From assembly GCA_050262615.1 (NCBI GenBank), contig JBLNEL010000329.1:2651-66650 (forward strand): a stretch of DNA of 64,000 bases, read 5' to 3'. Each line of letters starts with the position of its first letter. Positions within the stretch are counted from its first letter, which is position 1. Positions 1 through 31,686 of the stretch are shown here, one piece after another. The translations under genes and the position numbers were made by a program. This stretch comes from Bacillota bacterium. Its GTDB lineage: Bacteria; Bacteroidota; Ignavibacteria; Ignavibacteriales; SURF-24. Under the pieces are notes generated by a model. That model saw nothing but the letters and a program-made list of their open reading frames with translations, had not been told where the DNA came from and searched no databases.

Positions 1-1381
1 TGATGATGATGAAGGCGTAAGAGAAACCCTGAATATCGGTCTCAAAGAGCTTAAGGCCAGGATCCTACTTGCAGGCAACGGGCGGACGGGAATTGAGATG
101 CTCGAACATGAACATCCTGATCTGGTAATTACGGACCTGAAGATGCCTGATCTTACGGGTATAGATGTACTTAAAAAAGCAAAAGAATTTGACGACAACA
201 TGCCGGTAATTCTGATCACTGCTTTTGATGATATGTTTCTTACAATAAAGGCTATGCAGATGGGGGCATATGATTATATCGAAAAGCCTCTGGATATGAC
301 GAGATTTATTGTTACAGTAAGGCGTGCTCTGGAGAGCAAGAAATTAAGTGAGCGGTTAGTTACCGCTATTTCTAAAGACAGTGAGGCCTACCAGGCTGAA
401 AACAGCCTAATTGGAAAAACCCAGGAGATGAAGGAGATACTGAAAAAGATCGGGAAAATATCTTCCAGCAAGGTAAGCATACTTATACAGGGAGAAAGCG
501 GAACGGGAAAGGAATTAATAACTAAAATTATACATTATACAGGCATTACAAAAAGTCAGCCATTTATAGCTGTAAATTGTACAGCGCTTTCAGAATCCCT
601 GCTTGAGAGCGAGCTATTCGGGCATGTAAAGGGGGCATTTACAGGAGCAGTAAGGGATAAAAAAGGCAAATTCGAGCTTGCCGGAGAAGGCACAATTTTT
701 CTTGATGAGATTTCCGAGATCTCGCCTAATCTGCAGGTAAAGCTCTTAAGAGTAATTCAGGAGCGGGAATTCGAAAGGGTCGGGGCTGAGAGCACAATTT
801 CAATGAACGCAAGAATAGTTGCCGCTACGAACCGTAATCTTCAGCAGCTGGTTCAGGAGGGAAAGTTCAGGGAGGATCTTTATTACAGGCTAAAGGTATT
901 TACAATTGATATACCGCCTTTAAGAGAAAGGAAGGAAGACATTCCGGCGCTTGTGGTGCATTTCCTCAGAAAAATAAATAAAGATCTTCACAAGAATGTC
1001 AGCAAGATCCCGTATGAAGTAATGGAGATGCTGCAGAATCATGATTGGACAGGAAACGTTCGTGAACTTGAAAATACGCTGCTTCAGGCTGTTGTTCTTG
1101 CAAAAGGAGATGTGCTTGAAAAAGAAAATATACTTATAAGAAGGACTAACAATTATGCAAACTTAAACAATGCTTTTGAAAGGAGCAGATTAAGTCTTGC
1201 AGAGGTTGAAAAAGACCATATCAGGCTGGTACTTGAAAGTGTGAACTGGGATAAACAGGAAGCCTGTAAGATACTTAATATAAGCAAGGCTACTATTTAC
1301 AATAAAATTGAAAGCTACAGACTCTCTGAAAGAAAGGAAAACGTTGAAAGAAAAGAAAACCCTGTTGAGCAGGAAGTCTGA
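1..1381 (+). CDS. Sigma-54-dependent response regulator (NtrC-type bEBP); 5' end lies outside the window
   Basis: The frame stays open back to nt 2 (DDDEGVRETLNIGLKELKARILLAGNGRTGIE precedes the ORF-track Met at 98). Receiver motif DLVITDLKMPDLTG. AAA+ sigma54-interaction motifs GESGTGKE, GAFTGA, ELFGH. C-terminal Fis-type HTH (ACKILNISKATIYNKI). Confidence 0.92.
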   Translation, partial: DDDEGVRETLNIGLKELKARILLAGNGRTGIEMLEHEHPDLVITDLKMPDLTGIDVLKKAKEFDDNMPVILITAFDDMFLTIKAMQMGAYDYIEKPLDMTRFIVTVRRALESKKLSERLVTAISKDSEAYQAENSLIGKTQEMKEILKKIGKISSSKVSILIQGESGTGKELITKIIHYTGITKSQPFIAVNCTALSESLLESELFGHVKGAFTGAVRDKKGKFELAGEGTIFLDEISEISPNLQVKLLRVIQEREFERVGAESTISMNARIVAATNRNLQQLVQEGKFREDLYYRLKVFTIDIPPLRERKEDIPALVVHFLRKINKDLHKNVSKIPYEVMEMLQNHDWTGNVRELENTLLQAVVLAKGDVLEKENILIRRTNNYANLNNAFERSRLSLAEVEKDHIRLVLESVNWDKQEACKILNISKATIYNKIESYRLSERKENVERKENPVEQEV

Positions 1382-1406
1382 AAAAGAAGAGAGTATATTT
1401 ACTTTA

Positions 1407-1434
1407 AGCGGAGCCTAAAGGCTCCGTTTTTTTT
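1407..1434 (+). terminator. Rho-independent terminator after the bEBP gene
   Basis: Stem agcggagcc/ggctccgt with loop taaa, followed by a T8 run. It starts about 26 nt after the stop codon. Confidence 0.75.
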
Positions 1435-1493
1435 ACCAGTATTAAAGTTATCGAATAAATCTAACTCATTAAATTTAATGCAATAAATTTCGT

Positions 1494-1577
1494 CAAATAG
1501 GCTTCTCCAAATAGACATCTCCAAATAGACTTCTCCAAATAGACTTCATCGAATCAACTTCATTAAATCAATTCCTA
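1494..1577. repeat. 14-bp tandem array (about 6 copies, decaying at the edges); possible UAS
   Basis: Copies read caaataggcttctc / caaatagacatctc / caaatagacttctc / caaatagacttcat / cgaatcaacttcat / taaatcaattccta. More degenerate copies lie upstream from about 1452. The array sits about 140-220 bp upstream of the sigma-54-like promoter. Confidence 0.85.
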
Positions 1578-1713
1578 CGGGATATGTACCAGAAACATTT
1601 CAAACAGCGGAGATAATATAATAATTAGACTCACAGAGTTTAATATTTAGAATTAATCTTCAGATAAAGTCTTTTGAGTTTCGAAAAAAGATGAAAATCA
1701 AATTTTGTTTGTC

Positions 1714-1729
1714 TGGCACCAGACTTGAA
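1714..1729 (+). promoter_or_regulatory. Candidate sigma-54 (-24/-12) promoter
   Basis: TGGCAC-cagac-TTGAA matches the consensus TGGCAC-N5-TTGC with correct GG-N10 spacing and one mismatch (C to A in the -12 GC). It ends 34 nt before the ATG at 1763 and lies directly downstream of a bEBP gene. Confidence 0.55.
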
Positions 1730-1762
1730 GACCTACATTAATAAAAAAAAGAAAGGAATTTT

Positions 1763-2221
1763 ATGGCAGTTTCAACTGATTTTATCGAAGAAGTGATGGG
1801 GCTAATAGTTTTTGAAATATCCGGCAAGGAATTTTCTGCAAGCATAAAGGACATATATACAGTTATTAAGCCCAACTACGATGAACAGCCCGGACTGCAC
1901 TCCCCTTTTTATCCGCATCTTCTGATAAATAAGAAGAAAATACCAGTAATCAACCTTCACAAATTTTTCGGATTAAAAGCAAAGGCAGAGACCGACGAGA
2001 GCAGAATACTTATTGTCGAATCCTCTTCAGGGCATTTCGGTTTTTATGTAGAGTCAGTAAAAGAGGTATTTACAATAAGCATGTATATAAGGGAGAAGCT
2101 TACATTCATCTCTTCAAGCAGCAGTATGTATTTGAAAGGAAAGATAAGATATAAGGAAAGAGTGCTCAACCTTCCTGATTTTGAAAAGATAGCGGGTGAT
2201 CATCTTGTTATGGCTAACTAA
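1763..2221 (+). CDS. Single-domain CheW-like protein
   Basis: 152 aa, collinear with the CheW domain: LIVFEISGKEFSASIKDIYTVI, KKIPVINLHKFFGL, RILIVESSSGHFGFYVESVKEVFTI, YLKGKIRYKERVLNLPDFEKI. SD-like gaaagga lies upstream. Confidence 0.8.
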   Translation: MAVSTDFIEEVMGLIVFEISGKEFSASIKDIYTVIKPNYDEQPGLHSPFYPHLLINKKKIPVINLHKFFGLKAKAETDESRILIVESSSGHFGFYVESVKEVFTISMYIREKLTFISSSSSMYLKGKIRYKERVLNLPDFEKIAGDHLVMAN

Positions 2222-2259
2222 ATTAAGCAGTGTTTGTCTATTACGGAGGAAAAACAAAA

Positions 2260-4479
2260 ATGAAAAGCAGAAGAGAATTTCTGAAGATTATAGGTCTAAG
2301 CGGTGCGGGTTTATTGATCCCGTGGGGAAGGGCCGGGAGAGTTTTTGGCCATACATTATCAGATGGGGCCCTGAGGATAAATCCAAACAAACTTGATAAA
2401 TATGCAGACAAGCTGCCGATTCCAGGCGTATATAAACCAAAGGTTATTGAGGAGAACGGCATAAAGATCGATTATTACGAGATCAAAGTCCAGGAGTGCA
2501 GGCAATGGCTGCACAAATATTTTGAAACAGAAGGAGAATCATATAAAGCCAATCTCTGGGGATATGGTCCTTTAGGCGGGCAGGTCTCATCACCGGCAGC
2601 GACGATAGAGGCCAGGAAAGGCAGGCCTGTAAGGGTAAGGTTTATAAATAAACTTGATCCCACGGTGTCTCATCCGCTGGAGAAGGCATTAGATAAGACT
2701 TTGACCGGAGCAGAGGATCCGGTTATTCACCGTACTGTTACGCATCTTCATGGTGCTGAAGTGCCTTCAGACAGTGATGGATGGATGATGAAAAGTTTTA
2801 ATCCCGGGGAGGAATTTGTTTATAATTATCCAAACCTGCAGGAAGGTGCAACGCTGTGGTATCATGATCATGCAATGGGCATTACAAGGTTAAACACGCT
2901 GGCGGGTCTGGCCGGATTTTATCTCTTAAGAGATCCAAAGTATGAAGATGAATTCCTGGCAGGCGGAGTTATTAAGAATCCCGATTTTCTTAATCTTCCG
3001 AGGAACATTGGAGGTAAGGTCTATGAGATACCGCTTGCAATTCAGGACAGGCTATTGACAGAAAAAGGTTTGATTGATTATCCGTTTGAAGAAGTAGGTC
3101 AGACGGAGCATCCAAACTGGGCGCCCGAATACTTTGGTAATATAATACTTGTAAACGGAAAGGCGTGGCCATATCTTGAAGTTGAGGCGCGGAAATACCG
3201 TTTCCGGGTTCTAAACGGATCAAACTCAAGAGTATACAATCTGAAGCTTTCAGAAAATCTTCCGATTTATCTTATAGGTACTGATGGAGGGTTTATACCT
3301 CAGCCGGTTAAAATAGAGTCGTTAATACTAATGCCAGGAGAGCGGGCAGATCTGATAGTAGATTTTACAGGAGTTACTCCAGGCACAAAGATTTTGCTTA
3401 ATAATGATGCAAACGCTCCTTTTCCTGATGGTGATGCTACAGATGAGCACACAAGTCAGATAATGCAATTCAGAGTAATTCCACATGATCTACTTTTTCC
3501 TGATACAAGTTCAATACCGGCGGCAATTGCAGGGTTAAGGGCATTTATACCATATGATCCCAAAACATCAAATTACAAAAAGAGGACATTTACATTAAAT
3601 GAGCTTGAAGTAAACGGCACTCCGGTAATGGCAGTAGTAAACAATCGTGCATTTATGGACTGTTTATCAGAGGACGAATCGCCTGAATTCGGTGCAACCG
3701 AGATCTGGGAGTTTGTTAATATGACAATGGATGCTCATCCGATACATCTGCACTGTGTTCAGTTCAATCTTTTAAACAGGCAGGCATTTAATAGTGATGA
3801 AATGACCGGATATCCGGCAGAATTCTACAAAAACGGGCAGAACGGTCTGGAACTTGAAAATGGTCTGCACAGGCCGACAAGAAAACCGGTTTCAGTTCCA
3901 ATAGAGCCATATCTTACAGGTGAGCCTATATTGCCGAAGCCTGAGGAAAGATGCTGGAAGGACACTATAATAATGTATCCGGGTGAGGTTACCAGGATAC
4001 TTGTAGATTTCAGTGTAAGATTTAAGCCGACAAGTCCGGATGGATATGAAAGGTATGTTTATCATTGTCACATACTCGATCATGAAGACAATGAGATGGT
4101 GCGTCCGCTTGTAATAAGAGTGCCCGGGACGAAGTTCGATGATATGGCGCATATGAAAGGCAATTACACATCAGTTGCTTCAGGCGGGACTATGCCGGCG
4201 TCGGCGATGCTTATGCAAAATTATCCAAATCCATTTAATCCATCTACAGAGATATCCTTCAGGCTAGACAGGGTGGAGGATGTAGAACTAAAGGTTTACA
4301 GTATTAACGGTCAGGAGGTTTGCACACTTATTGAAGGAGGAACATACCAGGCAGGAGAACACAAAGTAAAGTGGAATGGGAAAACCGGTCATGGAGCCTC
4401 TGCAGCAAGCGGCACATATATCTGCAGATTAAAGACAAGCAGTTTCAGTCAGTCAATAAAAATGAATCTTATCAGGTAG
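2260..4479 (+). CDS. Three-domain multicopper oxidase (CotA/bilirubin-oxidase-like) with a Tat signal and a T9SS C-terminal sorting domain
   Basis: I prefer the ATG at 2260, which has a GGAGGA SD 9 nt upstream; the ORF track starts at a GTG at 2230. Tat motif SRREFLKIIGLSGAGLL. All four Cu motifs are present: HLHGAEV, WYHDHAMG, HPIHLH, HCHILDHEDNEM. The C-terminus NYPNPFNPSTEISF...KMNLIR is typical of a T9SS CTD. Confidence 0.9.
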   Translation: MKSRREFLKIIGLSGAGLLIPWGRAGRVFGHTLSDGALRINPNKLDKYADKLPIPGVYKPKVIEENGIKIDYYEIKVQECRQWLHKYFETEGESYKANLWGYGPLGGQVSSPAATIEARKGRPVRVRFINKLDPTVSHPLEKALDKTLTGAEDPVIHRTVTHLHGAEVPSDSDGWMMKSFNPGEEFVYNYPNLQEGATLWYHDHAMGITRLNTLAGLAGFYLLRDPKYEDEFLAGGVIKNPDFLNLPRNIGGKVYEIPLAIQDRLLTEKGLIDYPFEEVGQTEHPNWAPEYFGNIILVNGKAWPYLEVEARKYRFRVLNGSNSRVYNLKLSENLPIYLIGTDGGFIPQPVKIESLILMPGERADLIVDFTGVTPGTKILLNNDANAPFPDGDATDEHTSQIMQFRVIPHDLLFPDTSSIPAAIAGLRAFIPYDPKTSNYKKRTFTLNELEVNGTPVMAVVNNRAFMDCLSEDESPEFGATEIWEFVNMTMDAHPIHLHCVQFNLLNRQAFNSDEMTGYPAEFYKNGQNGLELENGLHRPTRKPVSVPIEPYLTGEPILPKPEERCWKDTIIMYPGEVTRILVDFSVRFKPTSPDGYERYVYHCHILDHEDNEMVRPLVIRVPGTKFDDMAHMKGNYTSVASGGTMPASAMLMQNYPNPFNPSTEISFRLDRVEDVELKVYSINGQEVCTLIEGGTYQAGEHKVKWNGKTGHGASAASGTYICRLKTSSFSQSIKMNLIR

Positions 4480-4535
4480 CTGAATTATTCAGGGATCCTG
4501 TTAAAAATAATCCAATTTCATTTACCTTCACAGAT

Positions 4536-4575
4536 AAAAAAAAGTCCCGCATTTATTTTTGCGGGACTTTTCTAT
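4536..4575. terminator. Bidirectional rho-independent terminator between convergent genes
   Basis: Stem aaagtcccgc/gcgggacttt with a 10-nt loop, an A-run on the 5' side and a T-rich tract on the 3' side. Confidence 0.75.
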
Positions 4576-4582
4576 TCAATTT

Positions 4583-4630
4583 AGCTGGTTATCAGCTCAG
4601 CTGGTTATCAGCTCAGCTGGTTATCAGCTC
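4583..4630. repeat. 16-bp tandem repeat x3 (agctggttatcagctc)
   Basis: Three perfect copies. Each unit contains the small inverted repeat AGCTG...CAGCT. The last copy overlaps the stop codon and last codons of the M48 peptidase gene. Confidence 0.9.
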
Positions 4631-5442
4631 GATTTCCTGTAATACTTCATAGCTTCAGGCAGTTCATCCTTGATTTTATTTATTCTTGTCTGGTCAGACG
4701 GGTGAGTGCTTAAGAATTCCGGGGGGGCACCTTTTGACTGTGCTGCCATTTTCTGCCAGAAGCCTACGGCGCTATTTGGATCATAGCCAGCCATAGACAT
4801 AAATATAAGGCCTAAGCGGTCGGCTTCACTTTCCTGAGTACGGCTAAAAGGAAGAAGTACTCCAACCTGTGCGCCTAAGCCGAAGGCTGCCATGTAGAGC
4901 TGTTGAGTAGCCTGAGGTTTTGTTTTAATAGCTTCCTGAAGAGCGATGCCGCCCAGCTGTGCCAGAAGTCCCTGGCTCATTCTCTCGTCGCCATGTTTTG
5001 CAACTGCATGTGATATTTCATGTCCCATTACCACAGCAAGGCTTGCCTCGTCGCTTGCAAGCGGCAGTATTCCCGAATAAACGACTACTTTACCTCCAGG
5101 CATGCACCAGGCGTTTACCTGCGGGTCCTCTACAAGGTTAAATTCCCACTGATAGCCTTTTAATTCATCTGAAAGGTTATTCTGAGCAAAATACTGTTCA
5201 ACGGCTTTTTGTATTTTAGATCCGACACGTTTTACCATTTGTGCCTGATCGGTGCCGGTTACTACTTTGTGGCTTTTAATAAAGTCGCCATACTGCTGAA
5301 AGCTCATCGATAGCATTTGAGAATTAGGAACCAGATCCAACTGTCTTCTTCCTGTTAAAGGTACGGTACTGCATTCAACAAGAATTAGTGAAAACAGTAA
5401 AACTACCGGGTACAGCAGATATCTTGAAATTTTCATAATCAC
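4624..5442 (-). CDS. M48-family zinc metallopeptidase, probable lipoprotein
   Basis: HEISHAV zinc motif, downstream ESEADRLG and STHPSDQTRI. N-terminal signal with LVEC lipobox-like cysteine. Confidence 0.88.
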   Translation of the reverse strand: MIMKISRYLLYPVVLLFSLILVECSTVPLTGRRQLDLVPNSQMLSMSFQQYGDFIKSHKVVTGTDQAQMVKRVGSKIQKAVEQYFAQNNLSDELKGYQWEFNLVEDPQVNAWCMPGGKVVVYSGILPLASDEASLAVVMGHEISHAVAKHGDERMSQGLLAQLGGIALQEAIKTKPQATQQLYMAAFGLGAQVGVLLPFSRTQESEADRLGLIFMSMAGYDPNSAVGFWQKMAAQSKGAPPEFLSTHPSDQTRINKIKDELPEAMKYYRKSS

Positions 5443-13295: not shown

Positions 13296-13343
13296 GCTGC
13301 ATTTTTGCAAAGCTGCATTTTTGCAAAGCTGCATTTTTGCAAA
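13296..13343. repeat. 16-bp tandem repeat x3 (gctgcatttttgcaaa)
   Basis: Three perfect copies plus a partial fourth (gctgc), about 80 bp upstream of the hybrid kinase start. Confidence 0.9.
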
Positions 13344-13420
13344 GCTGCTTATGTTTTAGGCTGTTTTAATTAATCAGAATTATTTTTCACAGATATCTTT
13401 TGGTAATATCCGGGAGAATT

Positions 13421-15419: not shown

Positions 15420-15530
15420 ACTCTTCCCCTTTTTTATTTATAAGAAAAACAAAAATCTCTCAAGGTTTAACCAAACGGAAAATTAATTAATTCAGATTCC
15501 AGAATCCAGAATAAAGTAGTTGAGAATAAA

Positions 15531-15605
15531 TTAACAGAGAAAAAATTAACAGAGAAAAAATTAACAGAGAGAAAATTAACAGAGAGAAAATTAACAGAGG
15601 GTAAA
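15531..15605. repeat. 15-bp tandem repeat x5 (ttaacagagaRaaaa)
   Basis: Copies start at 15531, 15546, 15561, 15576 and 15591, inside the divergent ybjQ / nmrA-like promoter region. Confidence 0.9.
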
Positions 15606-16726: not shown

Positions 16727-16786
16727 AAAAGGATAAAGGCAGAAATAAAAAAAAGGATAAAGGCAGAAATAAAAAAAGGATTAACA
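16727..16786. repeat. 24-bp tandem repeat x2.5 (aaaaggataaaggcagaaataaaa)
   Basis: Perfect copies at 16727-16750 and 16751-16774, with a partial third that runs into the terminator stem. Confidence 0.85.
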
Positions 16787-21655: not shown

Positions 21656-23011
21656 TTATTCAAGTCCGTAGCTCTGAAGTTTTCTATACAAGGTAGTAAC
21701 GCCAATGCCCAGGAGTTCTGCTGCGCGGGTTTTATTTCCGTTTACATCTTTAAGTATACTTATAATGTGCTGTTTTTCAATTTCCTCAAGAGAAGCCCTG
21801 GCTGAGAGAGCCTGCTGAGGCTGTGCTGAAGAAGAATTTCTATGGAATTCCGAAGGGAGGCTGGAGGCTTTAATTACATTTCCATCAGTAAGTATTACAG
21901 CGCGTTCAATAATATTTTTAAGTTCTCTGATATTTCCAGGGTAATCATAAGCTTTTAACTTTTCAATAAATTCAGGTTCAACAAGTGTAATATTTTTCTT
22001 AAGTTTTAATGAATATTCATTAATAAAATTTTCGGCAAGGCTGGGGATATCTTCCTTATGTTTTCTTAAAGGAGGAATATCGATCCGCATGACATTAATT
22101 CTGTAGTAGAGGTCGGATCTGAACAATCCCTTAGATATCTCATCCTCAAGGTTTTTATTAGTAGCTGCAATTATCCGTACATCGACATTAGTAGTTTTAG
22201 TATCTCCCTGTTTAATAAACGAATTGGTTTCGATCACCCTTAGGAGTTTTGCCTGGAGGCTGGGGTCAAGGTCGCCGATCTCATCGAGGAAAAGAGTTCC
22301 CTGGTGGGCCTCTTCGAACAGGCCTTTTTTATTCCTGTTAGCACCGGTAAAGGCGCCTGCCTTATAGCCGAACATTTCACTTTCGAGCAGTTCCTTTGCA
22401 AAAGCGCTGCAGTTTACAGCAACGAAAGCATTGTCATGTCTTGAGCTTGCGTTGTGTATTGATTGAGCGAAGATTTCCTTGCCTGTTCCAGTTTCCCCGG
22501 ATAATAAAACCGGTGCATCTGTTTCAGCCACCTTTTTAGCCAGGTTTACAGAGCTTTTAAGCAGTCCCTCTGCGCCAATAATACTATTAAAGCTGAATCT
22601 TTCAGAGATCCTGTTTTCAAGCTGTTCGATCCTTTTTCTAAGCTGCACTTTTTCGAGTGCTTTTTCTACAAGCGGTAATATTTTATTATCCTCATCGCCC
22701 TTTGTAATATAATCAAAAGCGCCTGATTTAATAGCCTTGACGCCATCCTGAATAGTGCCGTAAGCCGTAAGCATAATAATTTCGCATAATGGGGCTTTTT
22801 GTTTTATTGAAGCAATCAGATCAAGGCCGTTGGCATCGGGAAGCTTAACATCGCTTATTACAAGCTGTACTTCTTCACGTTCTAAAATGCTCATTGCTTC
22901 AAGAGCGTTTTCTGCTTCAAGGATGCGGTAATTTTCAAGTGATAAAAGTCTTGAAAGTATGCTTCTTAAGTCAACCTCATCGTCGATTATTAGAATTTTT
23001 CCCTTATCCAT
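21656..23011 (-). CDS. Sigma-54-dependent response regulator (NtrC/AtoC-type bEBP)
   Basis: REC (ILIIDDE...LVISDVKLPDANG). AAA+ motifs GETGTGKE, GAFTGA, EMFGY. C-terminal HTH AAELLGIGVTTLYRKL. Confidence 0.93.
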   Translation of the reverse strand: MDKGKILIIDDEVDLRSILSRLLSLENYRILEAENALEAMSILEREEVQLVISDVKLPDANGLDLIASIKQKAPLCEIIMLTAYGTIQDGVKAIKSGAFDYITKGDEDNKILPLVEKALEKVQLRKRIEQLENRISERFSFNSIIGAEGLLKSSVNLAKKVAETDAPVLLSGETGTGKEIFAQSIHNASSRHDNAFVAVNCSAFAKELLESEMFGYKAGAFTGANRNKKGLFEEAHQGTLFLDEIGDLDPSLQAKLLRVIETNSFIKQGDTKTTNVDVRIIAATNKNLEDEISKGLFRSDLYYRINVMRIDIPPLRKHKEDIPSLAENFINEYSLKLKKNITLVEPEFIEKLKAYDYPGNIRELKNIIERAVILTDGNVIKASSLPSEFHRNSSSAQPQQALSARASLEEIEKQHIISILKDVNGNKTRAAELLGIGVTTLYRKLQSYGLE

Positions 23012-23046
23012 TTATTCTTACTTCAGCTGTTTTATTTGGAAAATTA

Positions 23047-24924
23047 TTAAATGCAGGCAGGAAGTTTAAATGAGAATTTACTTCCCTTTCCTATCCGGCT
23101 TTCCACCCAGATATCGCCGCCCTGTGAAATAACGAATTCTTTTGAAATTGCAAGTCCAAGTCCTCTTCCTGCTGGGTTCTGGTTACCGACCTGTACAAAT
23201 TTACTGAATATTTTCTCCTGATCCTCATCAGAAATTCCTGGTCCCTGGTCTATTACAGATACTATAACGGAACCGTTCTGTTTTTCTGCTATAATTTTAA
23301 TAGTTCCGTTTTCAGGAGTGTATCGTATAGCGTTATTGATCAGGTTTACGAGCACCCAGACAGTTTTTTCTATATCAGCATTAATAAAAGGAAGGTTATC
23401 GTCAATTTCAGTTTCAAGCTGAATTTTCTTTTCTGCAATAATCATAACCATAGCTACGGCAGCGTAGTCAATAATATCGGAGACAGAGATCTTTTCGATC
23501 TTAAGCTTTATATTTCCGGACTCGGCCTGTGAATAGTCGAGGAGTTCATTTACCATTTTTGAAAGGCGGCCTGTCTGCTGTCTTACTGTCTGGATTATCT
23601 GTTTCTGTTCTTCGTTAATATAGCCTACTTTATCATTTTCAAGCAGTTTAAGGCTTAAGTTAATTGAAGAGATCGGGGTTTTGAGCTCATGTGAGACAGT
23701 TGCAATAAGGTTTGTCTTAGCCGTATCGCGTTCTTCAAAACGTGTTACGTTCTTAAGCTCGAGCAGATAGCCTACAAGTCTGCCGCCTGTATCTTCCTGA
23801 ATTCTGATCTCAGTTACTTCCCTGCTGAAGTATGATTCTTTATTATTAAAATAGATATGGACCGGCGGTGCGGGGGGATTATTTCTTTCTTCTTTTGTCT
23901 GCAGGTCAACTGGCTGCAGGTTGTCGATATTTGAAGCAGGCATAAGGGTTTTTATCATTTCCCTCATCACGTCGTTATTTGCAGCAAGGTCGGGAGCATA
24001 CTTGCCAATTATCTCCTCTTTCACAGAGCCAATAATATCGAGGGCCACCTGGTTAGCAGAAATGATGAATTTATTCTCATCCAGGACAACAACAGCATCG
24101 CTGAAGCTGCCGATTGCAGATTCCATTCTTTTTTTTTCAATAAGCAGCTTATTAATATTATTCTTTTCATATTCTTTTAATTCAGCTGCCATATGATTAA
24201 AAGCTCTTGAAAGTTCGCCCAGTTCGTCTTTTGAGTGTATTGTAAGCTGCTGGTTATAATTTCCGTGAGAGATCTCAGTAATTTTTTTTATAAGCTCATT
24301 AACAGGGCGGACAAGGTAATTTGGAAGATATAGTATAAAGACAAGAGCAATAACAGAGCTTAAGGCGCTTATTACAAGCATATAAAAAGAGACTTTTGAA
24401 GCGGTATGAGAAGCCTGACTGTTTTTTCTGAGGACAGAGGTTGTATTAAGTTTATAAATATCGTTAAGAATATTCTGGACAGATTCATATTTATCAATAA
24501 GCTGAATACCGAATAGTTGTGTATCGGTCGCTTCAGAAGAATTTAATTTCTGAAGAACGGTTTTAAATTCAGAATAACTTTTTTTAAGTTCACCCACCAG
24601 TTCTGCTTCGCCTGCTTCGGTGAGGTTTCCTTCTTCAGCCTTCAGGTTTTTGTCAAACTCTTCAAGCTGAGTCTGAATTTCTTTTGTTCTGTTTATCAGT
24701 ACGTCGTGTTTAAGCAGGTCGCGTTCGGCATGCAGGCTATAGATCTGGTTAATTGCCCTGAGCATATTTGTAGCATATCTTGCCGAGGCGTAGTTATCTT
24801 CGATAATATGGCTGGAATCCGAAGCCAATTGCCTTATAAAGGATGAGCCCACAAGTCCAAGTCCTACAACGATCATAAATAAAAATGCGAGGGCCAGAAA
24901 TATTTTAGTCTTAAGTTTGTTCAT
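23047..24924 (-). CDS. Membrane sensor histidine kinase (periplasmic helical domain, HAMP, PAS, HisKA, HATPase_c)
   Basis: I prefer the start at 24924 (MNKLKTKIFLALAFLF...). It lies 1 nt after the stop of the upstream ORF (TAA-t-ATG). H-box TVSHELKTP. N/G boxes NLINNAIRYT, GRGLGL, GKGSKF. Confidence 0.88.
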   Translation of the reverse strand: MNKLKTKIFLALAFLFMIVVGLGLVGSSFIRQLASDSSHIIEDNYASARYATNMLRAINQIYSLHAERDLLKHDVLINRTKEIQTQLEEFDKNLKAEEGNLTEAGEAELVGELKKSYSEFKTVLQKLNSSEATDTQLFGIQLIDKYESVQNILNDIYKLNTTSVLRKNSQASHTASKVSFYMLVISALSSVIALVFILYLPNYLVRPVNELIKKITEISHGNYNQQLTIHSKDELGELSRAFNHMAAELKEYEKNNINKLLIEKKRMESAIGSFSDAVVVLDENKFIISANQVALDIIGSVKEEIIGKYAPDLAANNDVMREMIKTLMPASNIDNLQPVDLQTKEERNNPPAPPVHIYFNNKESYFSREVTEIRIQEDTGGRLVGYLLELKNVTRFEERDTAKTNLIATVSHELKTPISSINLSLKLLENDKVGYINEEQKQIIQTVRQQTGRLSKMVNELLDYSQAESGNIKLKIEKISVSDIIDYAAVAMVMIIAEKKIQLETEIDDNLPFINADIEKTVWVLVNLINNAIRYTPENGTIKIIAEKQNGSVIVSVIDQGPGISDEDQEKIFSKFVQVGNQNPAGRGLGLAISKEFVISQGGDIWVESRIGKGSKFSFKLPACI

Positions 24925-24925
24925 A

Positions 24926-25321
24926 TTATTTGCATTTCGTGTAAGGCGAAAAAATCTCATGTTTCCATTGGATTTCTTTCTGTTCTTCATAAAACTCTAA
25001 TGACAGATAGAATCCCAACTGCATAATTAATTTCTCCAGGCGTTCAATAATCTCATTATCCGGCAAGAAGTCCTGAGGAGCAGGCTTTATTACTCCGTCT
25101 AAATTATACCTTAAAGATAACTTATCTCCAACAATTCCGATAGTAAATAAGGTAAGATTTGAATCAGTATGCTTCCGGAATATGACTGTTGTGGTATGTT
25201 TATCAAAAACAGCTTCGGGAAATTCATTTTTTATGGATTTGAAGACTACAGTCAGGGCAGCTATTTTATCATATGAACGATCCTGAAGTAAAACAGAGTT
25301 AGACCGGGACAGGTTATTCAT
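24926..25321 (-). CDS. Hypothetical 131-aa cytoplasmic protein, first gene of the kinase/regulator operon
   Basis: Start taken at Met70 of the 200-aa ORF-track entry. Upstream of it lie a tandem repeat and the sigma-54 promoter. Tight coupling to the kinase start. No recognisable domain. Confidence 0.5.
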   Translation of the reverse strand: MNNLSRSNSVLLQDRSYDKIAALTVVFKSIKNEFPEAVFDKHTTTVIFRKHTDSNLTLFTIGIVGDKLSLRYNLDGVIKPAPQDFLPDNEIIERLEKLIMQLGFYLSLEFYEEQKEIQWKHEIFSPYTKCK

Positions 25322-26630: not shown

Positions 26631-27923
26631 ATGAATTTATTAGCAGTAAGTATTAATCATAGAACCGCGCCTGTTGAATTAAGGGAAAGTCTTCACTTAA
26701 GCCAGGATGAAATAAAGCAGATGCTGAAGGGGTTAAAAGATACGCTTTTCAGCGAAGGTTTTATTATCTCAACGTGCAACCGGACAGAGATCTATGGATT
26801 TCCGGTCAATCTACGCACCAATTTCAGGGATCTTCAGAAGTTCCTGATAGAAAACAAACATGTCGACGGCATTTCATCGGCCAACTTCCAGAACTTTTTT
26901 TCCTGCAGTGCAGTAAACCATTTATTTAAGGTAAGTGCCGGAATTGATTCGCTTTTACTTGGTGACAATCAGATCTTAGGGCAGGTAAAGGAATCTTTTC
27001 AGATTGCAGAGGATTTTGATTTTGCAGGATTTCTGATGAAGAGGGTCTTCGATTCAGCTATCAAGGTTGGAAAGCGTGCAAAAACCGAGACAGTTATAAG
27101 TGACGGAGCGATAACAGTAAGCTATGCTGCTGTTCAGCTGATTGAAAAAATATTTTCAAATCTCTCAAGAAAGTCAGCTCTGGTAATTGGGGCAGGAGAA
27201 ACCGGTGAGATTGCAGCAAAGCATCTGCATGATAAGGGCATAGGGAATCTAACAATAACAAACAGGACATTAAAAAAAGCTGAAAAGCTGGCTCAGACGG
27301 TACATGGCAGCATAATACCATATGAGTACTTTAAAGAGCAGCTTCATGATTTTGATATTGTTATAAGTGCCACAAGTGCCCCGGATCTTATACTGACATA
27401 CAGTGATGTTAAAGCGGCAATGAAAAAGCGAAGCAATTCTGCCACATGTATGATGGATATAGCTGTTCCCAGGGATATTGATCCCAAGGTGCGTGATCTG
27501 GACAATGTATTTTACCATGATATTGATTCCTTAAAGATCATAGTTGACCAGAATGTAAGGAAAAGGCAGTCGGAGGTTCCAAAGGTTCAGGCGATAATAA
27601 TGGAAGAGATGATAAATCTCTTCAGCTGGTATAACTCACTTGAAGTGACTCCGACAATAAAGCTTTTGCGTCAGCGATTTGAAGATATAAGGGCAGATGA
27701 GGTTGAAAAGCTTAAGAACAAATTCAGCAAGGAAGACATTGAAAAGCTTGATCTTGTGACGAAGAGGATCATAAATAAACTTCTGCACCAGCCCACAATG
27801 GAGTTAAAAAAGCTCTCTGAAAGCGGCACAGGTAAACAGGACTCTTCCATTAAGGTCAATGTACTAAGGAGTCTTTTTGGATTAGATGACTCATCCTCAG
27901 ACGGCAATGGTCAGGCAGAATAA
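26631..27923 (+). CDS. hemA: Glutamyl-tRNA reductase
   Basis: MNLLAVSINHRTAPVELRE, STCNRTEIY, NAD-binding VIGAGETGEIAAKHL. Confidence 0.95.
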   Translation: MNLLAVSINHRTAPVELRESLHLSQDEIKQMLKGLKDTLFSEGFIISTCNRTEIYGFPVNLRTNFRDLQKFLIENKHVDGISSANFQNFFSCSAVNHLFKVSAGIDSLLLGDNQILGQVKESFQIAEDFDFAGFLMKRVFDSAIKVGKRAKTETVISDGAITVSYAAVQLIEKIFSNLSRKSALVIGAGETGEIAAKHLHDKGIGNLTITNRTLKKAEKLAQTVHGSIIPYEYFKEQLHDFDIVISATSAPDLILTYSDVKAAMKKRSNSATCMMDIAVPRDIDPKVRDLDNVFYHDIDSLKIIVDQNVRKRQSEVPKVQAIIMEEMINLFSWYNSLEVTPTIKLLRQRFEDIRADEVEKLKNKFSKEDIEKLDLVTKRIINKLLHQPTMELKKLSESGTGKQDSSIKVNVLRSLFGLDDSSSDGNGQAE

Positions 27924-28015
27924 GGATCAGTAACTTAAAAGAAAGTAAGAGCAATTAAAATTCAGAACATCAAAAGAAATTCAGATAAAGGAATTCAATT
28001 AAACAAGAGGTTTTT

Positions 28016-28960
28016 TTGGCAAGGAAAACAACAATTGTAATAGGTTCACGCGGAAGCGAGCTTGCACTCTGGCAGTCGAACTTTATTAAAAAGGAAATCG
28101 AGAAGAAAAATAAGTCAATTGCAGTCGAGATAAAGCTTATAAAGACAAAAGGCGACAAGATACTGGATGTTGCACTTTCAAAGATTGGAGATAAGGGGCT
28201 TTTTACAAAAGAGCTGGAAGTTGAACTGCTGAATAAAAATGTGGACCTTGCCGTTCATAGTCTAAAGGATCTGCAGACAGATATACCAGAGGGGTTAAAG
28301 CTGGCTGCTGTAACCAAGCGTCATCCGGTAGAGGATGTACTGATCGGGCGTAAAAAGAAGCTGACCATTTATGATCTGAAAGAAGGTGCTACAGTTGCAA
28401 CGGGGTCATTAAGAAGAAGGTCGCAGCTTTTACACATAAGGCCGGATATTAAGATTGAAGAGTTAAGGGGGAATGTTCCAACAAGGATAAAGAGGTTTCT
28501 TGAGTCGGACTGGGATGCAATTATTCTCGCAAGGGCCGGAGTTGAAAGGCTGGGGTTAAAGAAATACATATCGTCATACATACCAACAGATGATATACTT
28601 CCGGCAGTAGGTCAGGGAGCGCTTGGGCTTGAGATACATACAGACAATAAGATGGTTGAAGAAATACTTCAGTCGGTTCATGATGAAGCCACCTATCAGG
28701 CTGCGATAGCTGAACGTGCATTCTTAAAGGCTCTTGAAGGGGGATGTCAGGTGCCGATTGGTGCATTTGCAGAAGTAAGGACAAATGGAATTTACCTTGA
28801 CGGCATTGTAGGGGCAATAGACGGGAGCATTACTTTCAGAAAGAAATTAAGAGGAAGTAAAAAAGAACCGGATAAACTAGGCAAGCAATTAGCAAAGGAA
28901 CTTAAAAAAGCCGGAGCTGATAAAGTATTAAAAGAAATTTATAAAGCAGTCAGGATATAG
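28016..28960 (+). CDS. hemC: Hydroxymethylbilane synthase (porphobilinogen deaminase)
   Basis: IGSRGSELALWQ, HSLKDL, RGNVPTRI, QGALGLE, LEGGCQVPIGA. TTG start with SD aagagg 5 nt upstream. There is no in-frame ATG alternative. Confidence 0.95.
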   Translation: MARKTTIVIGSRGSELALWQSNFIKKEIEKKNKSIAVEIKLIKTKGDKILDVALSKIGDKGLFTKELEVELLNKNVDLAVHSLKDLQTDIPEGLKLAAVTKRHPVEDVLIGRKKKLTIYDLKEGATVATGSLRRRSQLLHIRPDIKIEELRGNVPTRIKRFLESDWDAIILARAGVERLGLKKYISSYIPTDDILPAVGQGALGLEIHTDNKMVEEILQSVHDEATYQAAIAERAFLKALEGGCQVPIGAFAEVRTNGIYLDGIVGAIDGSITFRKKLRGSKKEPDKLGKQLAKELKKAGADKVLKEIYKAVRI

Positions 28961-29030
28961 TTTTTCTGTCAGGTTTTCATAATCAGAATATAGTTTTCTT
29001 AAAAAGAATCAAAATCAGAGTTTAGTCACT

Positions 29031-30431
29031 TTGCAGCTTACAAAAAAAATAGAGTTAAAGAAAAGCAGAAAAAGAGAAAAGATAATTGAAGCAGCTTCAG
29101 AGCTTTTCTCACAGAAGAATTTCCACGAAGTAATGATGGAAGATGTAGCCAGGCTTGCTTCGATTGCAAAGGGGACGCTTTATAATTATTTTAATTCGAA
29201 AGAGGACCTCTACTTCTCCATTATGGTAATAAGAATGGAGAATCTGATCAACTCTTTAAGGGAAAGAATAAAGAAAGAAATAACAGCAGTAGATTCACTT
29301 CATAGTTTTGTTATACATAACTACATGTTCATGGTTAAATACAGCTGTTTTTTTCTTATGTTTCAGCGCGACAAGCTTACAGCTGAAAACAGTATATGCG
29401 AAGAGTTCAGGCAGAAAAAGTCAGAGCTTAAAGACCTGCTAAAAAATATTGTAGTCTGCGGAAAAGAAGAAAAGCTTTTCAGGAATATTGATACAGAATT
29501 TGTATGCGACCTTGTCTTAGGAAGCATTTACGGAGCTGTTGACCGTGCAATAGACAATAAGTCAGCAGCAGAGGCTTTAGAAGATGAGCGTCAGAGTCTG
29601 TTTGATTTTATATTAAAAGGTGTTTCGAGTGAACGCTCAGATGGAAGGTTAAAAGAAGTGCTTCCGTTAAGAAACAGAAATATCGTAATTGCAAGAAGTC
29701 TGGAGGATTCAGCTGATTCGGCAGAATTGTTCAGACAAAAAGGTGCTTTTGTTATCAGTTTTCCGACTCTTGAGATCGTGCCTTCAGATTCCATAGCCGA
29801 ATTAGACACACTGCTCAATGGTAAAATAGATATAATAATCTTTACCTCTGCCAGCAGTGTAAGGATGTTCATAAAAAGAATTGCTGAGACCGGTCAGAAG
29901 GTGAGCTATGAAAAGATAAAGGTCATAGCGATAGGAAAAAAGTCAGCCTTAGTATGTGAAAAAAATGGTATTCCTGTCAGTTTTATACCAAAGGAATTTT
30001 CAGCCAGAGGGCTTATCAGCGAACTTTCATCAAATGATGTTGAAGGGAAAGTAATTTTAATTCCATCTTCGGCGATTGGAAGAGATGAACTGCCGGAAGC
30101 GTTAAAAAAGATGGGTGGAATTGTAAGAGCGCCTGTTGTATACAATGCAGTTATTCCCTCAGAAGAAGCACTTAAAAGGCCAATGGAATTATTAAAAGGT
30201 TTAAGTCCCGAGGCGTATATTTTTACAAGTCCTTCATCGTTCAGGAATTTTCTTGAAATAATGAAAATAGCTGAACCAAAAGATTACTTTAACGGAACTG
30301 CCATTGCGGCAATTGGTCCAACGACAAAGGTCGAGATAGAGGCAAGCGGATTAAGAGTTGAGATAATGCCGGAGGAATATACGATGGATGGGCTCTTAAG
30401 GGCTTCAATAAGTTTTTTTAATGAAAAATAA
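29031..30431 (+). CDS. hemD: Fusion protein: full-length TetR-family regulator (about aa 1-205) + uroporphyrinogen-III synthase (about aa 210-466)
   Basis: N-terminal half: KIIEAASELFSQKNFHEVMMEDVARLASIAKGTLYNYFNSKEDLY (TetR HTH) plus a helical ligand-binding-type region. C-terminal half: NIVIARS, IIIFTSASSV, IAIGKKSA, VYNAV, IFTSPSS, IAAIGPTT (HEM4 domain). It is one uninterrupted ORF with a TTG start. Confidence 0.85.
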   Translation: MQLTKKIELKKSRKREKIIEAASELFSQKNFHEVMMEDVARLASIAKGTLYNYFNSKEDLYFSIMVIRMENLINSLRERIKKEITAVDSLHSFVIHNYMFMVKYSCFFLMFQRDKLTAENSICEEFRQKKSELKDLLKNIVVCGKEEKLFRNIDTEFVCDLVLGSIYGAVDRAIDNKSAAEALEDERQSLFDFILKGVSSERSDGRLKEVLPLRNRNIVIARSLEDSADSAELFRQKGAFVISFPTLEIVPSDSIAELDTLLNGKIDIIIFTSASSVRMFIKRIAETGQKVSYEKIKVIAIGKKSALVCEKNGIPVSFIPKEFSARGLISELSSNDVEGKVILIPSSAIGRDELPEALKKMGGIVRAPVVYNAVIPSEEALKRPMELLKGLSPEAYIFTSPSSFRNFLEIMKIAEPKDYFNGTAIAAIGPTTKVEIEASGLRVEIMPEEYTMDGLLRASISFFNEK

Positions 30432-30505
30432 AAATTGATGAAAATTAAGTATAGAAAAACAAATTGATGAAAAAACAAATTTTGAGATAATTTAAGGAAA
30501 ATATA

Positions 30506-31555
30506 TTGAATCTGAAGAACGATCTATTTTTAAGAGCATGCAGACGTCAGGCGGTTGAAAGGACACCGGTATGGATCATGCGTCAGGCAGGAAGGTATCT
30601 GCCTGAATACAGGGCAGTAAGAGAGAAAGCTGATTTCCTTACGATGTGCAAGACTCCGGAGCTTGCCTCAGAAGTAACGCTTCAGCCGATTGACATACTT
30701 GGGACAGATGCAGCGATTATTTTTTCAGATATACTTGTAATTCCAGAAGCAATGGGGATGCATCTAGAAATGCACGAAGGAAAAGGTCCGATATTTCATA
30801 ATCCGGTAAGGTCATCAGAAGATGTAAAAAGTCTGAAAGAGATTGATCCCACGGTTGATCTAAAGTATGTTTTAGATGCAGTTGAATTAACAAAGAAAGA
30901 ATTAAACGGAAGGGTTCCCTTAATTGGTTTCAGCGGGTCGCCCTGGACGCTTTTAACATATATGGTCGAAGGCAGGGGTTCGAAGAATTTTTCCTTTGTA
31001 AAGAAGATGATATATAATGATCCTGCACTTGCGCACAGGCTGCTTGATAAAATTTCAAAAGCTGTAGCTGATTATCTTTCGGCCAAGATAGCATCAGGAG
31101 TAAATGCCATACAGATCTTTGATACATGGGGCGGAATACTTTCGCAGAAAGACTTCAGGGAATTTTCGCTTCAATACATAACAAAAGTAATTTCGGAGAT
31201 AAAGAAAAACGATGAGCCTGTAATAGTATTTGCCAAGGGAGTGCATTATAATCTTCAGGATATTATAAATTCAGGAGCTGATGTGCTTGGAATGGACTGG
31301 ACAATGGATTTAGGAGAAGTAAGAAAGCAAATTCAGGATAAAGCAGCGCTTCAGGGTAATATGGATCCATGTGTTCTTTATGCCGGTAAAGAAAACATAC
31401 GCAAAGAAGTAATAAAGGTGCTTGAGTCATACGGCAATGGAAGCGGGCATATATTTAATTTAGGGCACGGGATACTGCCGGATGTTGATCCGGAAAATGC
31501 AAAGGCGCTGGTTCAGTTTGTAAAAGAAGAAAGCAAAAAGTTTCACACGAAATAA
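30506..31555 (+). CDS. hemE: Uroporphyrinogen decarboxylase
   Basis: NDLFLRACRRQAVERTPVWIMRQAGRYLPEYR aligns residue for residue with the canonical HemE N-terminus, which forces the TTG start at 30506. Confidence 0.95.
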   Translation: MNLKNDLFLRACRRQAVERTPVWIMRQAGRYLPEYRAVREKADFLTMCKTPELASEVTLQPIDILGTDAAIIFSDILVIPEAMGMHLEMHEGKGPIFHNPVRSSEDVKSLKEIDPTVDLKYVLDAVELTKKELNGRVPLIGFSGSPWTLLTYMVEGRGSKNFSFVKKMIYNDPALAHRLLDKISKAVADYLSAKIASGVNAIQIFDTWGGILSQKDFREFSLQYITKVISEIKKNDEPVIVFAKGVHYNLQDIINSGADVLGMDWTMDLGEVRKQIQDKAALQGNMDPCVLYAGKENIRKEVIKVLESYGNGSGHIFNLGHGILPDVDPENAKALVQFVKEESKKFHTK

Positions 31556-31670: not shown

Positions 31671-31686
31671 CCAGGAGATAAATAAA

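Follow-up and report, generated by a model that had tools for sequence, protein, structure and literature searches.

A divergent CheW-like gene is part of a conserved sigma-54 cassette of Ignavibacteriales-type bacteria that appears to have taken up a multicopper oxidase as cargo

The 64 kb of DNA analysed here, referred to as a whole as the window, contains near its start a CheW-like gene and a multicopper oxidase gene lying behind a putative sigma-54 promoter. Reading along the plus strand, the order is an NtrC-type activator gene (ending at 1381), a terminator, a 14-bp tandem array, the sigma-54 motif, the CheW-like gene and the multicopper oxidase gene; coordinates are collected in Table 1. 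All of the features claimed for 1381-4479 in a preliminary description of this DNA were found to be present, with coordinates exact or off by 1-2 bases. That description treated the CheW-like protein and the oxidase as a functional unit controlled by the adjacent activator, supposed an unseen sensor upstream of the window, asking whether its kinase might be CheA-like, and regarded the tandem array as suitably placed to be the binding site of the activator. Approximately 20 related loci were gathered from scans of species-representative genomes and metagenomes and from single-protein look-ups. The contigs of the relatives are labelled L001-L030 and the homologous proteins P0001 and so on; the named relatives' loci come from Ignavibacteriales or Ignavibacteriaceae metagenome-assembled genomes (MAGs).

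The promoter sequence TGGCACCAGACTTGAA is the only match to TGGCAC-N5-TTGMW in the 64 kb, the chance expectation being 0.12 matches with at least one match found in 9 of 100 shuffles. No second -24/-12 motif was found anywhere in the window, including at a second activator pair at 21656-24990. The motif ends 33 nt before the ATG of the CheW-like gene at 1763. Its -24 element and its spacing are perfect, while its -12 element reads GA where the consensus (TGGCAC-N5-TTGCW) has GC. Taken by itself such a motif is suggestive, and it would become convincing only through conservation. A sigma-54 motif was present upstream of the CheW-like gene in all 18 orthologous loci for which upstream sequence was available, at 40-82 nt before the CheW-like start in the relatives. 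Scanning 183.6 kb of the relatives' loci on both strands with TGGCAY-N5-TTG[ACT] gave 18 matches, 16 of them directly upstream of a CheW-like gene. The remaining two lie upstream of a kinase gene (L011, position 3785) and upstream of an intervening gene containing a carbohydrate-binding module (CBM; L023, position 5631). The promoters before the CheW-like genes of L010 and L011 are TTGCG variants, and in L023 the TTG called as the start of the CheW-like gene belongs to the -12 element. TTGAA was the commonest -12 form among the relatives, beside TTGC and TTGT, hence the non-consensus -12 element of the window is normal in this lineage. This phylogenetic footprint is the strongest evidence of the whole analysis and it strongly supports reading 1714-1729 as a sigma-54 promoter.

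The activator gene is cut at its 5' end by the start of the window and the full protein of 466 amino acids (aa) was read in the near-identical contig L001. Pfam scores were 87.6 bits for Response_reg, 233.4 for Sigma54_activat, 81.8 for AAA_lid_14 and 37.5 for HTH_8. The translation shows the GAFTGA motif and a receiver Asp in the stretch ...VITDLKMP.... The best NCBIfam equivalog models, AtoC (428 bits), NtrC (411 bits) and PrsR (TIGR02915, 375 bits), all scored under their cut-offs, so the protein belongs to the NtrC family but to no named orthologue group. The activators adjoining CheW-like genes in relatives are 67-81% identical to that of the window; the figure for the second activator of the window is 40%. 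Besides the window, the loci with an orthologous activator directly upstream of the CheW-like gene are L007, L009, L011, L012, L013, L015, L016, L020, L021, L024 and L028. The activator of L008 is 4.8 kb off, past an ABC/HlyD operon, that of L010 was not encountered within 8 kb and in L023 the CBM-containing gene stands between the activator and the CheW-like gene; promoter, CheW-like gene and cargo stay together in each of these loci. Most of the cassette loci in relatives have a cytoplasmic PAS-HisKA-HATPase kinase gene, not CheA-like, preceding the activator, and no adjacent kinase gene was found in the window, L020 or L024. Identities of activator and CheW-like protein between the window and its relatives are 67-73% and 30-44%, respectively, and among the relatives 64-83% and 34-59%. 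The two sets of values cover much the same range, and the cassette of the window is an ordinary member of the group. The CheW-like protein diverges much faster than the activator.

The genes behind this cassette differ. In about 16 distinct loci an exopolysaccharide/capsule cluster lies downstream of the CheW-like gene and encodes a DegT aminotransferase, a Bac_transf priming transferase, a GFO_IDH_MocA oxidoreductase, a hexapeptide acyltransferase (Hexapep), a Wza-like exporter and a Wzc-like co-polymerase/kinase, with a conserved 80-93-aa open reading frame (ORF) and a STAS protein as optional members. At the locus of P0003 (L028), whose CheW-like protein is among the closest to that of the window at 45% identity, the cargo is CsgE (83.8 bits) and CsgF (47.7 bits), both of them components of curli secretion. 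L028 (1-2105, Logan SRR21890360) also carries a perfect TGGCAC-N5-TTGCA promoter and an activator 81% identical to that of the window, and it has the GC content of the window (40.5%) and comes from the same run series as the window's population. The cassette of L028 may be a paralogue in the same or a sister genome. At the locus of P0004 (L029), a second sigma-54 motif TTGGCACTCTTATTGTG (approximately 638-654) follows the CheW-like gene and precedes a gene starting with a signal peptide (region 486-962), so that monocistronic CheW-like units exist; the CheW-like gene and the cargo of L029 appear to have separate sigma-54 promoters. An oxidase gene was found downstream of the CheW-like gene in none of the approximately 18 relatives with readable downstream sequence.

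These comparisons strongly support a conserved unit made up of the activator, the sigma-54 promoter and the CheW-like first gene, which would accept differing extracellular-matrix cargo. Since the cassette heads matrix operons in the relatives and an oxidase follows it only in this lineage, the pairing of CheW-like gene and oxidase gene is, with equally strong support, best read as a lineage-specific cargo swap and not as a dedicated functional pair. In the simplest account of its origin, an oxidase gene became joined to a copy of the cassette. The preliminary description had called this pairing unexplained and had itself made its standing depend on conservation in some relative. It was conserved in none: no oxidase was found with the CheW-like relatives, and no cassette with the three nearest oxidase homologues, which have no CheW, activator or sigma-54 motif nearby.

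Three observations on the small genes of the related loci are recorded here. The conserved 80-93-aa ORF, which follows the CheW-like gene in many exopolysaccharide loci, had no Pfam or NCBIfam match. A STAS protein of the anti-sigma antagonist type also follows in L021 (8056-8448) and in L022. In L030 a STAS gene is also found behind an unrelated multi-CheW gene. The recurrence of STAS genes hints at a partner-switching link.

The CheW-like protein itself matched PF01584 with 56.9 bits against a cut-off of 23.5 over residues 14-144, and matched no NCBIfam model. An AlphaFold2 model built from a 24-sequence family alignment was confident (pLDDT 88.8, pTM 0.83), with the protein at full length and all CheW strands predicted. 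A Foldseek search of the PDB with this model gave 18 significant matches, all of them CheW or CheA-P5, at TM scores of 0.60-0.70. Aligning the protein with canonical CheW showed where it departs. HMMER alignments to 2qdl and 1k0s show a gap of two residues where the NLRG motif has 'LR', and a MAFFT alignment of the subfamily with a hand-entered E. coli CheW sequence places T or A at E38, N, D or E at R62, a variable residue at G63 and mostly P at G57. The equivalents of P67, G99, the E-F/Y motif and the V-x-E-V motif are kept. All of the residues invariant in the subfamily (G13, E23, F24, R81, V96, E101, Y130 and P138) are present in the protein of the window, whose S25 replaces a Cys that is nearly invariant in the family. 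The R62-E38 salt bridge is invariant in class F7 CheW proteins and the conservation of G63 is absolute in classes F1 and F7, and E. coli CheW with the R62A change keeps its affinity for receptor and for CheA while chemotaxis of the cells expressing it is impaired (PMC3828127). Residues 57-67 of CheW touch CheA-P5, and E38 and R62 touch the receptor (PMC13098124). The protein therefore appears to have the CheW fold without being a canonical CheW, the coupling residues being lost and the gene never being encoded with che genes.

A HMMER scan of 1.84 billion representative proteins with the CheW-like protein gave 1077 matches at E <=1e-3 and 2 at E <=1e-30. So few matches among so many proteins indicate a small, divergent branch of the CheW family. 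The single-domain relatives are 30-46% identical to the protein of the window and align well with it. Many multi-CheW proteins of 500-680 aa with three or four domains also appeared and were rejected as relatives of the subfamily: each of their domains is canonical at 100 bits or more, and their rank comes from summed domain scores, which makes these matches uninformative on the subfamily. One of them, P0007, adjoins a gene for an MCP (methyl-accepting chemotaxis protein).

The oxidase gene encodes a CotA-like protein, matching B. subtilis CotA (1gsk) with E 3.6e-96 over residues 45-622. The four copper motifs are HLHG (2743-2754), WYHDH (2857-2871), HPIHLH (3736-3753) and HCHILDHEDNEM (4063-4098), at residues 162, 200, 493 and 602. 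The N-terminus MKSRREFLK contains SRREFLK at 2266-2286, and MKSRREFLKIIGLSGAGLLIPWG fits the consensus for twin-arginine translocation (Tat) by eye, with no Pfam or NCBIfam Tat model among the matches listed. At the other end a C-terminal sorting domain, type A, of the type IX secretion system (T9SS) spans approximately 4222-4476 (TIGR04183, 30.4 bits against a cut-off of 23); the tail also matched FlgD_ig (36.6 bits, cut-off 27), and Por_Secre_tail at 23.3 bits, which is under its cut-off of 27. The window contains a second T9SS-tailed protein at 52585-54735. Homologues of the oxidase number 7837 at E <=1e-30, and most of the best 120 listed carry a FlgD_ig/Por_Secre_tail tail. No other database sequence is more than 45% identical to the oxidase, the nearest homologues being at 42-45%. 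The twin-arginine motif was found in 10 of the best 120 homologues, most of the T9SS-tailed ones being of the Sec type, and a route from Tat to T9SS seems uncommon for a folded copper enzyme. No literature directly on such a route for a copper enzyme was found. The nearest homologue, P0180, is from the same sample as L001 and has an almost identical Tat-type signal and no cassette. As L028 shares GC content and run series with the window, one genome or its close relatives may possess several cassettes with differing cargo.

The two genes are separated by a 38-nt spacer from the stop codon of the CheW-like gene to the oxidase ATG at 2260, and no terminator was predicted between them. The GC-rich hairpin after the oxidase gene is followed on the plus strand by TTTTCTATT and is probably a bidirectional terminator closing the unit. 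The short gap, the lack of a predicted terminator, the strong Shine-Dalgarno sequence, the hairpin after the oxidase gene and the presence of the junction in several assemblies together make co-transcription of the two genes probable. The junction is the same, at 99.8% identity or more, in six independent assemblies from six sequencing runs, and an assembly artefact or chimera was dismissed for this reason. Much of the preliminary description is upheld by these results: the sigma-54 promoter, the CheW domain that it had proposed for a check against PF01584, the three-domain multicopper oxidase with four copper motifs and the probable co-transcription under the adjacent, orthologous activator all stand, and the secretion of the oxidase can be sharpened to a Tat-type signal, recognised by eye, and a T9SS tail.

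Table 1. Coordinates of the features discussed (positions in the window unless a relative's contig is named).
Feature	Position	Strand	Basis or detail
NtrC-type sigma-54 activator gene; receiver, AAA+ (GAFTGA) and Fis-type helix-turn-helix	2..1381	+	Pfam; 5' end cut by window start
Intrinsic terminator of activator gene	1406..1429	+	10-bp stem with 6 GC pairs, then T-run
14-bp tandem array	1494..1571	+	Core 1494-1547, CAAATAGACTTCTC x 3.9, degenerate on both sides
Candidate upstream activator sequence, two direct half-sites	1620..1653	+	Best local alignment with L028 upstream region
Inverted copy of array unit, GATAAAGTCTTTT	1663..1675	-	85-89% complementary to 1538-1550 / 1524-1532
Sigma-54 (-24/-12) promoter, TGGCAC-N5-TTGAA, TGGCACCAGACTTGAA	1714..1729	+	Sole match in window, and conservation
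CheW-like protein of 152 aa, single-domain and divergent; gene is first in sigma-54 unit	1763..2221	+	PF01584
Shine-Dalgarno GGAGGA of oxidase gene	2245..2250	+	9 nt before ATG at 2260; direct reading
CotA-like three-domain multicopper oxidase, 739 aa	2260..4479	+	Cu-oxidase_3, Cu-oxidase, Cu-oxidase_2, FlgD_ig (Pfam)
GC-rich hairpin, convergent oxidase and M48 peptidase genes on either side	4538..4573		14-pair stem predicted on minus strand
Tandem arrays of the window	1494-1547, 4583-4630, 13296-13348, 15522-15599, 16727-16781, 31599-31669, 33084-33116, 43139-43171, 47646-47694, 58507-58562		
Conserved 80-93-aa ORF (relatives)	L008 8456-8713, L010 8477-8722, L011 8453-8734, L017 587-841, L021 7495-7737		

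The binding site of the activator was sought by comparison with L028, whose activator is the closest to that of the window and has an identical recognition-helix stretch, ISKATIYNKIE. The best local alignment pairs the window at 1620-1653 with L028 at 782-813; the aligned stretch precedes the -24 element by 61-94 nt in both, and its score was reached in 7 of 1000 shuffles. The element contains the half-sites AATTAGACT (1623-1631) and ATTTAGAAT (1645-1653), which are 22 nt apart or approximately two helical turns. Local alignments of the window's upstream region with more distant relatives were not significant. The relatives have in common a motif of about 28 nt, TTGRAYT-N3-AWTTCA-N4-TTGAACT, at 60-85 nt upstream of the -24 element, and a position weight matrix (PWM) of this 28-nt motif gave a marginal match in the window at 1636-1663 on the minus strand, which ranked 14 of 128,000 positions (p of about 0.08 for the intergenic region). 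The only sigma-70-type match near both genes, TAGACT-16-TAGAAT at 1626-1653, lies upstream of both; it coincides with the 1620-1653 element, which explains it. The element at 1620-1653 is thus the best candidate for the primary binding site of the activator. An Rfam scan of 1300-4700 gave nothing near any gathering score, hence a riboswitch or leader RNA is not expected in the 380 nt of upstream DNA.

The tandem array lies further upstream than this candidate site, at -167 to -220. Tandem Repeats Finder reported 1494-1547 with a period of 14, 3.9 copies, 92% matches and a score of 94, the repeat decaying to about 1571, and a repeat search gave six copies spaced 14 nt from 1468 to 1565. The array unit AAATAGACT matches the half-site AATTAGACT, and of four matches to AWWTAGACT in the 64 kb three are inside the single 381-nt intergenic region between the activator and CheW-like genes. 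L028 has AAAGTCTT at a place similar to that of the inverted copy of the array unit at 1663-1675. No array was found at the corresponding position in any relative. As its unit repeats the half-site of 1620-1653, the array may add reiterated activator half-sites, which is possible but unproven. The idea that the array itself is the activator site therefore survives in part: the conserved element is at 1620-1653 and not in the array, while the resemblance between array unit and half-site holds.

About ten intergenic regions of the window, their flanking genes convergent, divergent or co-oriented, contain short tandem arrays, each with its own unit. These arrays have periods of 7-24 nt (mostly 14-17) and 2-5 copies. 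Such arrays are common in this genome, so the presence of the one at 1494 is unremarkable. Contig L001 differs by one copy in the 16-bp array at 4583-4630, and the breaks of two assemblies fall inside the array at 1494. A 7-mer repeat of the TAATTCA / AATTATG family, for example CTTAATTCATAATTCATAATT, was also seen in at least two intergenic regions (33077-33116 and 43059-43171), which gave the top window-wide scores of the 28-nt PWM scan; it may be a small dispersed repeat element.

The surroundings of the cassette were examined for chemotaxis genes and for a kinase. No CheA, MCP, CheB, CheR or stand-alone CheY was found by Pfam among the 40 non-overlapping ORFs of 120 aa or more that the window contains, three further ORFs being annotated from the L001 gene table, which agrees with the preliminary description as regards cheA, MCP and cheY. 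No che genes were found within 6-8 kb in the approximately 18 related loci. Contig L001 is 99.9% identical to the window and reaches 1.3 kb further upstream. There a short-chain dehydrogenase (SDR) gene precedes the activator gene with a 220-bp gap, and no kinase gene, CheA-like or other, lies directly upstream of the activator in this extension. The sensor supposed to lie at this place was thus not encountered, and the kinases that precede the activator in relatives are of the PAS-HisKA-HATPase type. A tblastn search of the window found no orthologues of the relatives' PAS kinase, conserved 80-aa ORF, STAS protein, exopolysaccharide genes or CsgE. The best matches of the window to the PAS kinase had 22-28% identity compared with 40-51% among the relatives' kinases. 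No synteny was found between the flanks of the window and those of the relatives.

Some other contents of the window deserve mention. The minus strand at 21656-24990 encodes the second pair of HAMP-PAS kinase and NtrC-type activator, unrelated to the first, whose activator is the one noted above as 40% identical to that of the cassette. At 29031-30431 HemD is fused to an N-terminal TetR-type helix-turn-helix (TetR_N at residues 18-62, HEM4 at residues 231-456), within a complete haem-biosynthesis cluster (hemA, hemC, hemD, hemE, hemN, hemH, hemY and hemB) at 26631-36639; TetR-HemD is an unusual fusion of regulator and enzyme. The NCBI label for the protein identical to P0001, the product of 1763-2221, is 'MAG: Bacillota bacterium'. 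Given the two T9SS-tailed proteins in the window and an activator 67-73% identical to those of Ignavibacteriales MAGs, the Bacillota label of the bin is probably wrong.

The following explanation is favoured. The activator would be phosphorylated by a kinase encoded elsewhere and would then bind upstream of the promoter, the best candidate site being 1620-1653, to which the half-sites of the 14-bp array may add. It would open the sigma-54 promoter at 1714-1729 and a single cheW-like–oxidase transcript would be made, ending at the hairpin near 4540-4573. Tat export of an already folded and copper-loaded protein is usual for this enzyme class, and the oxidase would leave the cytoplasm in this state via Tat and then cross the outer membrane by the T9SS. 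The CheW-like protein, co-induced with matrix or secreted products, would enter the chemoreceptor array as a non-coupling adaptor and would damp or rewire chemotaxis while a 'sessile/matrix' programme is on. Its expression under the activator and promoter is kept whatever the cargo, and also in L029, where the gene appears to be transcribed alone, hence its function would belong to the regulatory state and not to one cargo. To our knowledge, the chemoreceptor array is the only partner class of the CheW fold. Ignavibacterium album, of the same phylum, possesses the full complement of flagellar and chemotaxis genes, with only one MCP among them (PMC3362086). Taken as a whole, that is a conserved regulatory cassette of Ignavibacteriales-type bacteria with the oxidase as swapped cargo and the CheW-like product as an array modifier, this explanation seems to us to have an even chance of being right. 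The part of it that makes the CheW-like protein a non-coupling adaptor damping chemotaxis is argued by analogy and, taken by itself, is less likely than not.

Several points weigh against this explanation. The -12 element is TTGAA and not TTGC. The tandem array may be irrelevant to regulation, such arrays being common in the genome. The role suggested for the CheW-like protein is argued wholly from a predicted fold, lost residues and analogy, and che genes were absent from the window and from all of the related loci. Residues have been lost at the receptor interface as well as at the kinase interface, and the protein may thus have given up both partners and been retargeted. The second sigma-54 motif of L029, between the CheW-like gene and the next gene, makes an internal oxidase promoter conceivable. 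The window has no orthologue of the relatives' PAS kinase.

Retargeting is the core of the explanation ranked slightly below the array-adaptor role. The CheW-like protein would here be a partner of the activator or of its PAS kinase, with a Che3-type variant in which it links the activator to a CheA encoded elsewhere, and as the first product of the activator's own sigma-54 promoter it would create a feedback loop. This appears doubtful, though it accounts for the gene adjoining the activator in the majority of loci, be the cargo exopolysaccharide, curli or oxidase, for its being always under an activator-type promoter and for the replacement of the canonical contact residues E38, G57, R62 and G63. 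CheV is a fusion of CheW and a receiver and indicates that CheW-type modules can work with receivers. The Che3 system of M. xanthus, with the NtrC homologue CrdA as its output, has CheW-type modules and NtrC-type receivers in one pathway (PMC3147164). Several observations count against such feedback. In L008 and L010 the CheW-like gene stays with promoter and cargo at distances from the activator of 4.8 kb and of more than 8 kb, respectively, the CheW-like protein evolves much faster than its supposed partner, and no MCP or CheA is encoded in any of the loci. We know of no interaction between a CheW domain and a HisKA kinase or an AAA+ activator, nor of any CheW-fold regulator of an AAA+ activator. 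A broader version covers both roles: a portable 'go-sessile' cassette would switch on any extracellular product placed behind it, the CheW-like product would rewire or silence the array or feed back on the activator, and the half-site array would tune the output. We consider this rather unlikely in its full form. A function of the CheW-like protein as a scaffold of the exopolysaccharide machinery was also considered and rejected, as the protein persists with curli or oxidase cargo.

The remaining alternatives concern the oxidase. Its gene could have landed behind a pre-existing cassette, or displaced the earlier cargo, and be exploiting the promoter, with the CheW-like gene kept as a promoter-proximal leader that has no local role or is decaying; the varying cargo, the lack of synteny between the flanks of the window and of its relatives, and S25 in place of the nearly invariant Cys would all fit. 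A decaying gene is hard to reconcile with an intact ORF, a full set of subfamily-invariant residues, a confident fold and its own ribosome-binding site, and this hitch-hiking is judged unlikely. More improbable again is transcription of the oxidase by itself, the sigma-54 element serving the CheW-like gene only. L029 provides a precedent with its second motif, but in the window the spacer is 38 nt without a terminator, there is no second -24/-12 motif and the sole nearby sigma-70-type match (1626-1653) lies upstream of both genes. The least credence of all is given to the reading drawn from the preliminary description, a dedicated adaptor-oxidase pair under its own activator feeding back on a CheA-like sensor encoded just upstream. 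The genes are indeed adjacent, probably co-transcribed and stable across the six assemblies. Against this, the pair is missing in all CheW-like relatives examined and in the three nearest oxidase homologues, an SDR gene and not a kinase gene lies upstream of the activator, the kinases of relatives are PAS-HisKA proteins, and the oxidase carries Tat and T9SS signals for action outside the cell whereas CheW-fold proteins are cytoplasmic.

The pairing of CheW-like protein and oxidase is accordingly a local cargo swap and no pointer to a new link between oxidase and signalling. What emerges in its place is a compact conserved module in a poorly studied phylum, in which a CheW-fold protein without the coupling residues stands first under a sigma-54 promoter controlling matrix genes. 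Ignavibacteria are plentiful in wastewater, in sediments and in anammox communities. Should the CheW-like protein connect matrix induction with chemoreceptor arrays or with the activator, it would give the CheW fold a new output or input, and such a link would provide a testable handle on the motile-to-sessile decision in Ignavibacteria. A go-sessile cassette, if true, would be an undescribed coupling of matrix production to chemosensory signalling. An extracellular laccase fits loosely with cargo of the matrix type, for example through oxidative cross-linking or the formation of pigment or metal oxide, which is speculation. The practical gains are TTGAA as a normal -12 variant in this lineage, a candidate activator motif and the flagging of a Tat plus T9SS route for a copper enzyme.

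Comparison with known systems shows which components are familiar. The NtrC-type activator, the sigma-54 promoter, the CheW fold, the CotA-like oxidase and the Tat and T9SS signals are all of known kinds. The oxidase shares three domains and four copper motifs with the CotA laccase/bilirubin-oxidase-type enzymes, including the T9SS-tailed ones of the FCB group, and differs in that no other such enzyme was met behind a sigma-54/CheW-like cassette, the neighbourhoods of the three nearest homologues having been inspected. PrsK/PrsR, the PEP-CTERM-box system (TIGR02915), likewise uses a kinase and an NtrC-type activator to regulate exopolysaccharide loci. The window's activator scores 375 bits with that model, under the equivalog cut-off of 502.6, the AtoC and NtrC models score higher, and the loci of the relatives showed no exosortase or PEP-CTERM genes.

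As regards the arrangement of genes, the activator gene pspF adjoins a sigma-54 promoter whose first product, PspA, regulates the activator. The same activator/first-gene arrangement is seen here, but PspA is a coiled-coil protein and ours has the CheW fold, and feedback is proposed here by analogy. The EpsE 'clutch' of the Bacillus subtilis eps operon is reportedly a glycosyltransferase acting on the rotor protein FliG. It resembles the present case as a motility modifier co-expressed with an exopolysaccharide operon, which couples matrix to loss of motility, a logic that we infer for the cassette; EpsE does not have the CheW fold and there is no sequence or structural relationship. In the Che3–CrdS/CrdA system of M. 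xanthus a histidine kinase and an NtrC-like sigma-54 activator are tied to CheW-containing chemosensory proteins (PMC3147164), and this is the only well-studied link of CheW-type modules with an NtrC-family activator. The Che3 cluster has MCPs, CheA, CheB and CheR where the loci here have only the CheW-like gene, and its CheW is within the upstream sensor cluster whereas the CheW-like gene here is the target of the promoter.

Canonical CheW of E. coli and T. maritima resembles the CheW-like protein in being a single domain of about 150 aa with PF01584 and the same predicted fold. The protein described here differs in lacking the E38–R62 salt bridge, G57 and G63, in matching no NCBIfam CheW model, in being encoded away from cheA, mcp, cheY, cheB and cheR, and in being the first gene product of sigma-54 matrix operons. 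FrzB of M. xanthus is reported to be a CheW-fold protein without the whole region for CheA binding, encoded inside the frz cluster (bioRxiv 10.1101/239202, PMC6952110). FrzB too is a divergent CheW fold that has lost canonical CheA-interaction features, and it is an accessory array modifier which binds receptor and not kinase. It provides a precedent for the array-adaptor model. The protein here may work as FrzB does but does not belong to the FrzB group, being of full length with substitutions in place of a deletion and encoded far from any che gene. A literature search found no description of a CheW-like protein in sigma-54/exopolysaccharide contexts or in Ignavibacteria. A CheW subfamily without the salt bridge, encoded systematically by the first gene of sigma-54 matrix operons beside a specific group of activator orthologues, is thus apparently undescribed.

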